From IMG/VR virus record IMGVR_UViG_3300022666_000091: 64,000 nt of DNA; one strand, written 5' to 3'. The notes below the pieces were generated by a model. It saw nothing but the letters and a program-made list of their open reading frames with translations, ran no database searches and had not been told where the DNA came from. The translations under genes and the position numbers were made by a program. Positions 6,536 to 12,110 of this stretch are shown here, in pieces. This DNA is from an uncultured virus (IMG/VR IMGVR_UViG_3300022666_000091) (lineage: Duplodnaviria > Heunggongvirae > Uroviricota > Caudoviricetes). The first letter of the stretch is position 1. Each line of letters begins with the position of its first letter.

Positions 6536-7852
6536 ATGCGGATCCTTCATACTGGCGACACTCATTTCTCAGTCAAAAACGACAAGCTCGCCGAAGTCAT
6601 AACCGTTACCGACTTTATACTTACCCAAGCGGCGGTCTTGAAACCCGATCTCTCTGTCATTGCGGGCGATCTCGTTGACGAGCACGACGGCGCGATTCGG
6701 ATTGACAGCCCGACAGCAAGGGCCGCTATCCGCTTCGTCACAGAACTGGCCAAATTTTCACCGGTCATCATCGTATCCGGCACCCCGTCGCACGATAGGC
6801 AGACTCCGTATCTGTTCGAGCGTTTACGGTCACCATTCCCTATTCACGTAGGCATGGAGTTCCAGCAGATCCTGGTCTATAAGGACGTGCAGGGGTATCA
6901 ATTTGTGCCGCACACTGCCGATACTCAGTTCCTTGCTGACCGCCACCCGCTGGCAGCGCTAACACTTTTACCGTCTCCCTGCAAAGGCAATATCGTCGCC
7001 AACATCGAATGCACGTCGCAAAGCGAAGCGGTCAGGATTACCAAGGAAGCCTTACAGGATATGCTCAGTTACTTCGGGGAAATGAACAATCGCATACCGT
7101 TCGAGGATACCCCAAGGGTCGCCGTCGGCCACGGCATGGTCATAGGAAGCGAGTTCAGTTCCGGCCAGGTCGCAACTGGCGAGGATCTCGAATTCAGCCG
7201 CAGCGATCTCCAACTGCTTAACGCTGATGCAGTCATGTTCGGGCATATCCACAAGCAGCAGTGGCCCTACTGCGGCAGCCCCGGAAGGCTTTCCTTCGCT
7301 GAATCGGAATCAAAAGGCTTCCTGCTCCACACCCTCGACGGCCGCCAGCTGGTAGAAACCCGCTTCATCGAAACCCCGGCCCGCCGCTTCGTGCTGACTG
7401 AGGCATCCTGGGACGACGCAGGCCTCGACGGGATTATGGCCAAGGCCGCCGAATGCGAATCCCAGTGCCAGGGGGCCGATGTCCGCTTTCGCTTCACGGT
7501 GCCGGAAGAATGCCGCCACCAGGTCAACCGCGACGAGCTGAAAGCCCGCTTCGAAGCGGCCGGCGCCCGGCTGGTCAAGATCGAGATGACCATCATTCCG
7601 GCGGTCCGCATCCGGGCGGCAGGTATCTCCCGGCTGGAGACGCTGCCCGAAAAGGTGGAGAAGTGGGGGACAACGACCGGCACCGACATCCCTACCCGAG
7701 TTCTGGATATCGCCAGGACCATCGAGGGCCGCGACGTTGAGGAGCTGATCGAGGACGCCAAGCGGCAGTTGGAGCAGGTGGACGTTATCCCGGTTCAGGA
7801 AGTGCCTGAAGAGTTGCAGTTCGACAGGCTCATTGAGAAGGTTGCGATATGA
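6536..7852 (+). CDS. sbcD: SbcD/Mre11-like metallophosphoesterase nuclease
   Basis: GDTH, GDLVD, GTPSHD, GHG, GHIH motifs; ATG 6536 with GAAAGGA RBS. Confidence 0.85.
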   Translation: MRILHTGDTHFSVKNDKLAEVITVTDFILTQAAVLKPDLSVIAGDLVDEHDGAIRIDSPTARAAIRFVTELAKFSPVIIVSGTPSHDRQTPYLFERLRSPFPIHVGMEFQQILVYKDVQGYQFVPHTADTQFLADRHPLAALTLLPSPCKGNIVANIECTSQSEAVRITKEALQDMLSYFGEMNNRIPFEDTPRVAVGHGMVIGSEFSSGQVATGEDLEFSRSDLQLLNADAVMFGHIHKQQWPYCGSPGRLSFAESESKGFLLHTLDGRQLVETRFIETPARRFVLTEASWDDAGLDGIMAKAAECESQCQGADVRFRFTVPEECRHQVNRDELKARFEAAGARLVKIEMTIIPAVRIRAAGISRLETLPEKVEKWGTTTGTDIPTRVLDIARTIEGRDVEELIEDAKRQLEQVDVIPVQEVPEELQFDRLIEKVAI

Positions 7853-9488: not shown

Positions 9489-12110
9489 ATGAAACCGATA
9501 TACGGAAAAGTGAGAGGCTCGAAAGCAATTCGCGCCGGCATGGGGCTGGAAGAGATCGAGATTGATTTCTCGAAGCTCCCGAACGGCCTGATCGCCGTCT
9601 GCGGCAAGAACGGCACGGGGAAAACCACTATCCTCGACCTGTTGTGTCATCCCTTCAGGTTGCAGCCGTACAAATTGAGGGAGAGCAAGGCATGGTCTCC
9701 CGATGCCTTCTCGTACTACAACGAGTTCTACGGCAGGGACGGCTACTTGGAGCGGGTCTTCGAAATGAACGGCGCCCGTTACCGCTCGATCATCATGATC
9801 GACGCCGAGAAGCGGAAACAGGAATGCTACCTGTACCGGGAAGAGGCCGGGACGTGGATCCCTTACAACGCCGCCGTCAAGGCCGGGAAGACCCGCGCTT
9901 ATGACGAGGCCGTCGAGGAACTGGTCGGCTCCCCCTCCCTCTTCTTCTCGTCGGTCTTCCGCAGCCAGGATGCCCGCAAGCTCTCGTCCTATCCGAGATC
10001 GGAGATCCTGGGAATCGTCACCGAACTCTTGAACATCGACCATATCCGGATTCAGGGGGACAAAGCGAACGAGGTTGTCAAGGCCCTGGCCCGCATGGTG
10101 GAAGAACTGGAAGCCAAGAAGCAGCCGCTCCTGGCTGCCATGTCGAAGCTGGACGAACTCCAGGAGCGGAAGGCCTTCCTGGGAAAAGAGATCGCCCACC
10201 AGAACAACGGCCTGGAAGTTTTCAAGCGGACCCTGACCGACAAGGAACAGTCCGCCCACGACCTGGAACTGGCCTTTGCCGCCGAAGCCGTCTCCCGGAA
10301 GCGCCTCGACGACATGAAGGCGGAACACGCCCGGCTGCAGGCGGAGATTACCGCCTTCGAGCAGGAAACCGCGACACGGCTCCAGGAATATGATGCCGAG
10401 ATCGCCCGGCTGGGGGAGGCCCTGGCTGCTGAGAAGAAGCAGCTGACCGCCGATATCGAGACCATGCAGACCGATCTCGAAAAAGCCCGCCAGGAAGCCC
10501 TGAACGAAGGCGCCGCCATTGAGCAGAAACGGAACGCCCTGAAAGACATCCTCGCCCGGGCCGACGAAATCAACGCCGCAGTCACCCTGGAGAAAGAAGA
10601 AGAGGCGGGCCTCGCCCACTGGAAGGAAAAACTGGAAGCGATCCGGGTTCAGTACGCCGGACTCCAGAAAGAGGCACAGACAGCTACACAGCTGACCGCC
10701 GATATCAAGGTGGCCCAAGGCGATCTTGAGAACATTCGGCACCGCCAAGCACAACGGATCGCAAACTTGAAGCGGGAGCAGGAACGCGACCGGCAACAGG
10801 TCGCCTCACTCGGAAATCTCGACTGCAAAGCAGACGGTTCCGGCTGGATCAACGAAACCTGCCCGCTCCTGGTCGATGCCATGGCCGCACGGCAACGGCT
10901 TGATACGCTGTCGCAGGAGATTGAAGAGGCGGCAAGGGTATCACCGCAGGAAGAGACCTTGACCGCTCAGATAGCCGAAATGAAAGCGAAGCGGACGGAG
11001 ATGGGCGACGTGTCGGCAAGGCTGGAAGCCTGCGGTACCGACGGCAAGGAAAAAGCCCGGCTGGTAGCCGAACTGGAGAAGAAACTGACCGAAACCCGCA
11101 AGGTCGCGCAGTTGGTTTTCGAGCTGGATACGGCGAAGACCCGCATGGAGGAACTGGAGCAGCAGGAACAGGCAGTCTTGCAGCGGCATTCCGACAAATG
11201 CCTCGACGTCGAGCGCCAGGTCACGGCACGCATGGAGCGGTCACGGGTCGCACAGGAGGATATCAAGACTCGCACGGCAGACGTCCAGGCGAAACGGGAC
11301 GAGTACGCAAGAGCCGCCGGCGGCAAGGATGCCGACCTGCGGGGCCGGGCATTCGGCCTTCAGGGAGAAATCGAGCAGCTCTCCACCTCCCTTGACGGCG
11401 GCCTGGAAGCTAACCTGAAGCAGATCCAGACCGAGATCGCCACGGCAAAACAGGAAGTCGAACGGCAGGAAACCACCCTGCGCAATCTGTATGGCCAGAT
11501 CGGCGGCGTTGAGCAGCAGCTGGCGGCCCTGAAAGAATCCCAGCAGGTGGTGGAAGCCATCGACGGGAAGATTGTCAGGATTAATGCGGAAGCCATCAAC
11601 TGGCGGATACTGGCGAAGGCGTGCAGTAATGACGGGATAATCCAGCTCGAACTGGATGACTCGGGGCCTGCGATATCGGCCCTGACAAATGATCTGCTCC
11701 TGTCGGTCTATGGCCCCAGATTCTCGATCCGGCTGGAGACGCAGGCGCTGAAGGCCGACGGCGGACTCAAAGAGGTGTTTGATGTGACGATCTTCGACGC
11801 CGAGCGGGACGAAGAGAAGTCAATCCGCGACATGTCCGGAGGGGAGGTCACCTACATCGAGGATGCCATCACCCGGGCCTTCTGCCTCTTCAACCTGAAC
11901 CGGTCGAACCGGGTGTATGAATCCCTGTTCTGCGATGAGAAAGATGGGGCGTTGGATCAGGACCGCAAGACGGAGTTCCTGACCATCAAGCGGCGGGCGT
12001 TGGAAATCGGTTCGCACCGGCAGGAATACTTTATCACGCAAACGCCGGATCTGTTCGAGCGGGCCGACGCCAGGATCGTCCTGGAGAAAGGAGGGGTTAC
12101 CATCCAATAG
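9489..12110 (+). CDS. sbcC: SbcC/Rad50-like SMC ATPase
   Basis: Walker A GKNGTGKTT, long coiled coil with central Cys pair, signature MSGGE, Walker B/D-loop LFCDEKDGALD. Confidence 0.9.
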   Translation: MKPIYGKVRGSKAIRAGMGLEEIEIDFSKLPNGLIAVCGKNGTGKTTILDLLCHPFRLQPYKLRESKAWSPDAFSYYNEFYGRDGYLERVFEMNGARYRSIIMIDAEKRKQECYLYREEAGTWIPYNAAVKAGKTRAYDEAVEELVGSPSLFFSSVFRSQDARKLSSYPRSEILGIVTELLNIDHIRIQGDKANEVVKALARMVEELEAKKQPLLAAMSKLDELQERKAFLGKEIAHQNNGLEVFKRTLTDKEQSAHDLELAFAAEAVSRKRLDDMKAEHARLQAEITAFEQETATRLQEYDAEIARLGEALAAEKKQLTADIETMQTDLEKARQEALNEGAAIEQKRNALKDILARADEINAAVTLEKEEEAGLAHWKEKLEAIRVQYAGLQKEAQTATQLTADIKVAQGDLENIRHRQAQRIANLKREQERDRQQVASLGNLDCKADGSGWINETCPLLVDAMAARQRLDTLSQEIEEAARVSPQEETLTAQIAEMKAKRTEMGDVSARLEACGTDGKEKARLVAELEKKLTETRKVAQLVFELDTAKTRMEELEQQEQAVLQRHSDKCLDVERQVTARMERSRVAQEDIKTRTADVQAKRDEYARAAGGKDADLRGRAFGLQGEIEQLSTSLDGGLEANLKQIQTEIATAKQEVERQETTLRNLYGQIGGVEQQLAALKESQQVVEAIDGKIVRINAEAINWRILAKACSNDGIIQLELDDSGPAISALTNDLLLSVYGPRFSIRLETQALKADGGLKEVFDVTIFDAERDEEKSIRDMSGGEVTYIEDAITRAFCLFNLNRSNRVYESLFCDEKDGALDQDRKTEFLTIKRRALEIGSHRQEYFITQTPDLFERADARIVLEKGGVTIQ

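Follow-up and report, generated by a model that had tools for sequence, protein, structure and literature searches.

VIPR (Viral Interference Programmable Repeat) systems were described in preprints dated April to October 2026 (10.64898/2026.04.26.720920; 10.64898/2026.04.26.720927; 10.64898/2026.10.15.759431; below, the VIPR preprints) as phage-borne systems consisting of a RAMP protein of ~20 kDa (Vipr) and of vrRNAs with 9–16 YNNGG repeats and a conserved 3' tail. According to the preprint texts, Vipr protomers polymerise along the vrRNA, bury the GGY and present the other two nucleotides of each repeat (NN), and double-stranded DNA is bound with a 5-to-3 nucleotide register. The NN pair with this DNA while one nucleotide is skipped on codon wobble positions, on either strand and with no protospacer adjacent motif (PAM). 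The activity reported there is transcriptional silencing of competing phages and satellites, and seven types (I–VII) with varied accessory genes are distinguished, some of them reported with nucleases. Expression of vrRNA, Vipr binding and silencing are known from these texts only for the SUSP1 and P. fulva systems. Here we analyzed a 64,000-nucleotide stretch of DNA from an uncultured member of the Caudoviricetes (IMG/VR record IMGVR_UViG_3300022666_000091; the whole stretch is called the window below), which is phage-like in character. Judged from its sequence, one region of it, holding vipr, sbcD and sbcC, is almost certainly a VIPR system made up of a Vipr RAMP protein and two predicted vrRNAs. 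VIPR itself is already in print; our subject is the position of these two guides, each directly 5' of a gene (sbcD or sbcC) whose family consensus it fits far better than it fits the resident copy.

The gene vipr (5839..6405, + strand) encodes a Vipr-family RAMP protein of 188 amino acids (aa; PHROG 4652), with a G-rich loop (GLGDFRPARKGPFG) near its C terminus. A phmmer search matched residues 44–180 to PDB entry 36pp_D, the SUSP1 Vipr protein (E = 1.5e-6). The AlphaFold2 (AF2) model of the product had a pLDDT of 94.5, and its top Foldseek matches were Cas7/Csm3, backbone subunits of CRISPR complexes of types VII and III (probability 1.00, E ~2.5e-6). Glycines G164, G174 and G177 were invariant across 60 homologues, and HMMER recovered 2522 cluster representatives as relatives at E<=1e-3. 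KGY-NN arrays flanked vipr, on the same strand, in 79 of the 80 IMG/VR loci encoding relatives (46–75% identity). It is because of the sequence match to Vipr, the Cas7/Csm3-like model and the arrays at these relatives' loci that we assign the locus to VIPR and read its arrays as vrRNAs. The system resembles the backbone of Class 1 CRISPR (Cas7/Csm3 with crRNA) in protein fold and, going by the VIPR preprints, in a thumb that interrupts guide-target pairing periodically, but it has no CRISPR array and no other cas genes, a pairing rhythm of 2+1 instead of 5+1, and hard-wired guides.

Both guides lie in leader sequences. The 130-nt leaders of sbcD and sbcC align with each other, and both are written in 5-nt steps as KGY-NN tracts. 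The repeat tract of vrRNA-D (6400..6494, +) begins at the vipr stop codon and holds 17 clear KGY-NN units (6410–6494) and 2 degenerate 5' units. It is followed by a conserved 3' tail (TCCAA TCCAA GGGAT; 6495..6509, +), an A-rich spacer, a ribosome-binding site (RBS) and the ATG of sbcD (6536..7852, +), which encodes a 438-aa SbcD-like nuclease subunit (Pfam Metallophos 3.3e-10; PHROG 100 SbcD-like 1.1e-19). The repeat tract of vrRNA-C (9363..9447, +) has 15 clear units (9373–9447) and, at its 5' end, 2 degenerate ones overlapping the stop codon of an open reading frame (ORF) with a DUF6011 domain; it runs into its own tail (TCCAA TCCAA GGGAA; 9448..9462, +), an A-rich spacer, an RBS and the ATG of sbcC (9489..12110, +), encoding an 873-aa SbcC-like ATPase subunit (PHROG 77 SbcC-like 4.7e-44). 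Both tracts end in TCCAATCCAAGGGA, an exact 14-mer common to the two leaders, with its second copy at 9448–9461 and no other occurrence in the window at <3 mismatches. When KGY was scored over ten successive 5-nt steps, 9/10 was reached in the window only at the two arrays; outside them the maximum on both strands was 6/10, at a single minus-strand place. Tandem Repeats Finder and Rfam reported nothing at the arrays. A TCCAA..GGG tail likewise ends arrays in other phage contigs (L002, L083 and G002). The arrays and guides that the original prediction had read from the sequence of the window do exist, as period-5 KGY-NN tracts directly 5' of sbcD and sbcC.

To decode the guides, unit positions 4–5 were reverse-complemented and the units read in reverse order, giving codon positions 1–2. 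Decoded in this way, guide D reads V K/N A F/L T L L P S/R P D/E K/N S/R K/N L I/M T A Y and guide C reads G C/W L H/Q P Y R L I/M P Y K/N L R/S D/E S K/N. The dinucleotide string of guide D aligns with sbcD codons 139–157 (6950..7006, +; LAALTLLPSPCKGNIVANI), and that of guide C with sbcC codons 51–67 (9639..9689, +; LLCHPFRLQPYKLRESK), just 3' of the Walker A motif. We then used an amino-acid-level local score in which a unit was matched if the residue of the resident codon was among those that its dinucleotide can encode. For each guide the single best match among ~127,900 window positions on both strands was the in-frame site in its own downstream gene, and 0/2000 order-shuffled guides reached the site score for either guide. 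A count of identical dinucleotides was weaker (77/2000 and 59/2000 shuffles reached the site score), and when matches were simply counted without gaps, the 7 of guide D were equalled or exceeded at 16 other positions of the window. These counts indicate that guide and site resemble each other chiefly in the peptide that they encode. The earlier idea of guides that skip wobble bases is borne out by this in-frame decoding at codon positions 1–2, which equals the VIPR rule as published in the preprints.

Several other accounts of the arrays were considered. Reading the third unit base as a codon base was rejected because the residues then come out wrong (Arg in place of Ser, Glu in place of Asp), and a guide as a second protein-level copy of sbcD or sbcC was rejected after tblastn found none in the window. 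We also weighed a TRAP-like translational operator, periodicity of the RecT/Rad52 kind, mimicry of tRNA anticodons and pairing with the phage's own mRNA, and dropped all four on the amino-acid-level match (Ser AGY against TCN), the better fit of foreign alleles and then the match to Vipr.

Compared with VIPR as the preprints describe it, the locus has the same phage-borne ~20 kDa RAMP protein with a G-loop, and ~100-nt pentanucleotide GGY/NN arrays with a conserved tail. A DNA site would again be specified by NN with one skipped wobble base per unit, there is no self-match of at least 80% NN in the window, and predicted targets lie in other phages (guide C reaches 80% over 15 units on the vipr-less L003 and L085, see below). 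It differs in its units, which are KGY (often TGY) and number 15–19 per guide compared with the reported 9–16, and in its conserved tail of only ~13 nt (UCCAAUCCAAGGG). Its guides do not lie together, since one adjoins vipr and the other is 3 kb distant, and no conserved vap (accessory) gene was found around this vipr. The putative targets are homologues of the carrier's own sbcD and sbcC, with the guide standing just 5' of the allele that would be spared.

To compare guides and resident sites with the gene families, sets of 120 SbcD and 69 SbcC homologues were assembled, with identities to the window proteins of up to 60% and 72%, respectively; the closest were P0002 for SbcD (58%) and P0122 for SbcC (72% over residues 1–200). 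The guides agree with the family consensus far better than with the resident genes: at codon positions 1–2 they spell the SbcD-family motif FTLLPSPDKSNLI and the SbcC-family motif LHPYRLMPYKLRE. At the sbcD site the consensus is ..KAVFTLLPSPDKSNLIAA.., which faces V-K-A-F/L to I/M-T-A in guide D and LAALTLLPSPCKGNIVAN in the resident. At the sbcC site the consensus LDNL-HPYRLMPYKLR(E/K) faces L-H/Q-P-Y to D/E-S-K/N in guide C and the resident LLCHPFRLQPYKLRESK. The resident sbcD site matches guide D at 7/19 NN (10/19 units amino-acid-compatible) and the resident sbcC site matches guide C at 8/17 NN (12/17 compatible). With NN matches of 37–53% both sites are under the 80% cut-off that the VIPR authors apply to targets, and these are the best self-matches in the window (64 kb, not necessarily the whole genome), in which none reached 80% NN. 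Within the sites, the changes specific to the resident are F142L, D149C, S151G, L153I and I154V in SbcD, and an extra Cys53 codon, Y56F and M59Q in SbcC. SbcD residue D149 is at least 90% conserved among homologues: the resident has Cys at this position, and 57 of 59 other printed homologues have Asp, with one Glu and one Asn (counted by eye). The extra Cys53 of SbcC falls in a column filled in only 1/68 other homologues.

Foreign alleles fitted better. Over the 15 units of guide C from Leu to Lys, 12/15 NN (80%) matched on the sbcC of L003 and again 12/15, 11 of them consecutive, on that of L085 (10–11 consecutive matched units on the two alleles; 12/17 on each with two extension units), and the phage records behind both are without vipr. 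On seven further relatives the guide matched 4–9/15 NN, and on the resident 8/15 (7/15 when the 15 clear units are counted ungapped; 8/17 once both extension units are included). Guide D matched 10/17 NN on L003 compared with 7/17 on the resident (7/19 extended). The DNA of 80 IMG/VR loci was taken via the SbcD alignment and, with L001, gave 81 SbcC/SbcD-relative loci (L001, L003–L082). Arrays were found in 0/81 of these (82 loci scanned, 736 kb, threshold 7/10), and the sole array in the 82 scanned loci was in L002, which had itself been retrieved by its array pattern.

On these comparisons we consider it probable that sbcCD alleles of rivals are the targets and that the resident alleles are spared by their divergence. 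Vipr on the two vrRNAs would present the NN, and the guides would pair with sbcCD alleles at codon positions 1–2, so that the phage may silence the sbcCD of related competitors that have no vipr. Its own sbcD and sbcC would be spared through differences at codon positions 1/2, these being codon-family swaps at Leu, Arg and Ser together with amino-acid substitutions, some of them at normally conserved residues, and the inserted Cys53 codon of sbcC would break the register of the guide. The amino-acid changes and the codon insertion add at least as much mismatch as the swaps. The pay-off of silencing sbcCD may lie in polar or roadblock effects.

That each array stands in the leader of the very gene that holds its best match in the window could also be explained by regulation in cis, with the vrRNAs weakly and tunably repressing their own sbcD and sbcC via partial complementarity; the preprints do report repression by VIPR bound within a coding sequence or close to one. 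We regard this as very improbable. Foreign alleles and the family consensus fit the guides much better than the resident does, and most arrays of Vipr relatives have no match in cis. In addition, perturbed NN pairing abolished silencing in the reported experiments and targets were called only at >=80% NN (VIPR preprints), against the 37–53% of the resident sites.

The residue of a codon can be kept while positions 1/2 change only for Leu, Arg and Ser. The original prediction had offered as a rule that wherever guide and resident gene agree in residue and differ in DNA, the difference is a swap between the codon families of a six-fold-degenerate amino acid. As stated this is a tautology, true by definition, so that only the number of swaps is informative. 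Guide and resident are compatible at nine six-fold positions, and at seven of these (sbcD 142, 145 and 147; sbcC 57, 58, 63 and 66) the resident uses the other codon family. From phage codon usage (Leu TTR 11%, Arg AGR 20%, Ser AGY 30%) 3.3 swaps were expected (P = 0.003). A conservative count without position 142 and the extension unit gave 5/7 (P = 0.010). All of the swapped codons named earlier were present (CTA, TTA and TCT in sbcD; AGG, two TTG and, in the extension, AGC in sbcC). At the sbcC site, 5/6 Leu/Arg codons belong to the minor TTR/AGR families (TTG52, AGG57, TTG58, TTG63 and AGG64), compared with 3/14 outside the site in codons 1–120 and 14/136 in the remainder of the gene (site against flank, Fisher p = 0.018). 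The relatives support a derived state of the codons at Arg57 and Leu58: at Arg57 the resident has AGG and 7/9 relatives have CGN, and at Leu58 it has TTG and all five relatives with Leu have CTN. The swaps in sbcC, at least, might have been favored by selection against self-targeting. That the swaps were selected for escape is a tentative proposal, which we hold at somewhat less than even confidence. The explanation as a whole, in which VIPR guides act against rival sbcCD, resident alleles are spared by divergence and swaps were favored, is the one that we prefer, and we think it fairly likely to be right.

A number of observations weigh against this explanation. For guide D, no natural target of at least 80% NN was found in IMG/VR, the best being 10/17 (59%), nor did any IMG/VR allele carry nine consecutive guide-D units inside sbcD; the lone 9-unit pattern match was a chance one outside any gene. 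(These target scans covered IMG/VR and GTDB representatives with exact 9–10-unit patterns only; in the GTDB genomes the 10-unit pattern of guide C had one match, in a Paludibacteraceae metagenome-assembled genome, a chance one in a frame with stops.) The resident match (7–8 NN) is no lower than that of distant relatives (4–9), so ordinary divergence could explain it. Not every clustered rare codon helps: AGG64 of sbcC agrees with the guide, which gives no escape there, and TTG52 stands opposite a non-Leu unit. In sbcD, TCT at Ser147 is the usual state, with TCN in 6/7 array-less relatives, and position 142 is TTC (Phe) in 7/7 relatives, making it an amino-acid change and no Leu swap. The sbcD site shows no enrichment in rare codons (1/4 compared with 7/29 in the flank). 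Both the codon-clustering windows and the cut point used for third-position G+C content (GC3, below) were picked after seeing the data. As SbcCD is diffusible, the resident's proteins might complement a silenced rival in mixed infection. Finally, no conserved accessory (vap) gene was found near vipr, the largest neighboring ORF family occurring in 19/83 sources, and of 19 other window genes tested (183–16196) none recurs in the 80 loci of Vipr relatives.

Much of this would be expected under neutral divergence, where VIPR does target rivals, self-matching guides were simply never retained and nothing was recoded, the swaps being a matter of history such as a lower-GC donor. Besides the poor matches of distant relatives, the family norm of TCN at Ser147, Phe for Leu at position 142 and the lack of rare-codon enrichment in sbcD, it would be consistent with the low GC3 common to 5' sbcD and vipr, suggestive of a foreign block that brought codon habits of its own. 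It would also agree with the VIPR authors, who report in the preprint texts that no guide matches its own contig at >=80% and do not invoke recoding. We nevertheless judge it rather unlikely as the full account, given the seven swaps at nine six-fold positions where 3.3 were expected, the minor-family codons of the sbcC site (5/6 compared with 3/14 in the immediate flanks), and D149C and the Cys53 insertion, which are unusual at conserved residues exactly within the sites.

Targeting of rivals with self-sparing, the reading we favor, keeps some parts of the earlier interpretation and sheds others. Its guides, wobble skipping and self-sparing stood up; it was overstated for sbcD, partly tautological, and left selection and conversion unproven. 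The proposed cluster of TTA, CTA, TTG and AGG codons was seen in sbcC only, and the supposed Leu TTn against CTA in sbcD gave way to a target that is most likely Phe. Among array-less relatives, the codon usage of the resident recurred at Ser147 of sbcD, and did not do so at Arg57 or Leu58 of sbcC.

The 5' half of sbcD had been described as less GC3-rich than the 3' half, and this was confirmed (0.64 compared with 0.79, p = 0.0014). With a cut at codon 240, placed post hoc, the values were 0.65 and 0.80 (p = 0.00045). GC3 was 0.61 for vipr and 0.755 for phage-wide genes. These values fit the arrival of vipr, guide D and 5' sbcD, including the site, as one block, and are not proof of it. The distance from guide to spared allele is 130–450 nt. 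Such tight linkage might hold a guide together with the allele that it spares and so protect recombinants from self-silencing.

In intronless homing, as with the free-standing homing endonucleases of T4-like phages, a selfish element adjoins a conserved gene and attacks it in relatives, its own copy being resistant. The present locus resembles this in that the neighboring copy of the gene would be protected by sequence differences. There, cleavage is protein-guided and co-conversion is proven; here, binding is predicted to be RNA-guided, and neither cleavage nor conversion was seen. A homing or gene-drive unit, in which rival alleles hit by the guide would suffer damage and recombination would then put the guide-bearing copy in their place, could account for the tight linkage of guide and spared allele and for the GC3 break within sbcD, such as co-conversion of vipr, guide and 5' sbcD would leave; nucleases are reported in some VIPR types. 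We think it improbable, since no nuclease was assigned to the locus and no conserved accessory gene was found, the VIPR activity characterized in the preprints is silencing and not cleavage, and recombinant or converted alleles were not observed. Of the linked selfish unit put forward in the original prediction, then, the close linkage of guide and allele remains, and the conversion of kin alleles is not supported.

We looked for guides beside diverged homologues in other phages, and this pattern recurs in a minority of arrays, of which the two guides of the window are the clearest cases. In L083, a metagenome contig of 1.7 kb, an array ending in the same tail stands 5' of a vipr homologue (37% identity). 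Read in sense orientation, this array spells the opening codons of the gene that follows, with 8/12 dinucleotides (G-V-M-E-M-S-V-E-E-F-L-K in the array, G-T-M-E-M-S-V-E-Q-F-L-E in the resident), including a Ser AG/TC swap. In the same contig (L083:183-213) a strong GUCCC-UUCG-GGGAC hairpin follows the vrRNA tail, and the two vrRNAs of the window are without it. A complete phage of 112.6 kb with terminal repeats (G002) carries vipr at 22572–23165 and three dispersed arrays with the TCCAA..GGG tail, at 22297–22381 (+), 23208–23282 (+) and 36458–36512 (-). For the array that follows vipr, the best amino-acid-level match in the whole genome lies 76 nt downstream of the array itself (score 15, compared with <=13 in 30 shuffles). 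The other two arrays, including L002 (13 kb away), had no genome-wide match, and for L002 a cognate site was found neither within 7 kb nor anywhere in its 112.6-kb genome. The arrays of L083 and G002 thus follow the wobble-skip rule too, on either strand.

This search was extended to 154 arrays at the loci of 64 relatives. In at least one of four configurations 19 arrays beat all 40 shuffles, where chance allows ~15; 13 did so by at least 2 and seven by at least 3. Only these seven look like real matches in cis, the margin being uncalibrated. Among the 13 is the vrRNA of L142 (array 2798–2882; margin 2), which decodes to the conserved GK.K.TT.KSSL.PA motif of vipr and matches the vipr of its own locus (L142:2354-2404) at only 6/17 dinucleotides. 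By sequence this is likely an anti-VIPR guide that spares its own gene, aimed at vipr as the VIPR preprints report for other clades.

The closest reported parallel in the preprints is that of SUSP1-like phages, in which solo vrRNAs target vrRNA or vipr (10.64898/2026.10.15.759431, section 8). There, too, guides are directed against a rival's version of something that the carrier has as well, and self-matches score under non-self ones, which the authors read as avoiding autoimmunity (10.64898/2026.10.15.759431). What is targeted in those phages is the VIPR machinery, and many of the carriers have lost their own vipr by deletion, whereas the predicted targets here are core recombination-nuclease genes kept by the carrier in diverged form.

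Four small ORFs (7849..9369, +; 244, 130, 54 and 63 aa) lie between sbcD and sbcC, two genes that directly abut in the relatives L001 and L003. Searches of these ORFs against Pfam, PHROG and PADLOC returned only DUF6011, on the last, 63-aa ORF, which carries a CxxC motif. The 244-aa ORF has a GC3 of 0.63, low like that of vipr. Immediately 5' of vipr is an ORF resembling a DNA polymerase exonuclease (5159–5842), and further upstream (3009–4523) an ORF of 504 aa carries a Gp3-like recombination-directionality-factor domain (Pfam PF18897, 1e-18). Two other repeated motifs were seen in the window. One, starting GTGCATCATTTTT and ~48 nt long, occurs in seven copies on the + strand (1191, 4857, 8584, 41683, 42389, 43592 and 45218), every copy at a gene boundary and often directly after a stop codon, with a GGAG or GGGA resembling an RBS close to its end; the motif probably serves the phage as a promoter, terminator or regulatory box. 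The other, TGTRTGNNNNAYCAAACAC..TTTAGGCG, occurs in five intergenic copies of 28–50 nt in the minus-strand structural region (23441, 39588, 41653, 55279 and 61213) and looks like a second promoter-type repeat. No near-identical phage records were found, the nearest (G001) being a 30.8-kb fragment without the region.

The VIPR preprints argue that wobble skipping makes escape impossible without a change of protein. In their main texts, supplements aside, there is no mention of escape through six-fold-degenerate codons, and the main text of the one preprint checked for it does not mention SbcC. The silent six-fold loophole, and guides against homologues of the carrier's neighboring core genes, accordingly appear to be unreported as far as those main texts go. 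The locus suggests that the argument on escape needs qualifying, in that six-fold-degenerate codons permit silent escape, and that guides against homologues of the carrier's essential-type genes are feasible provided that the alleles of the carrier are recoded and stay linked to the guide. A further idea, which we consider doubtful, is that guide and allele form a linked killer-rescue cassette, in which the six-fold loophole, the substitutions and the insertion let guides target the most conserved motifs of the carrier's own core genes. If this were true, a recombinant that took the guide without the allele would silence itself, and cassettes of this kind would spread in mosaic populations of phages, where they would drive the recoding of core genes. 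The locus offers a concrete and testable model for discrimination between self and non-self in a PAM-less RNA-guided system, and guide-allele pairs of this kind would be a way to read phage-phage conflicts directly.

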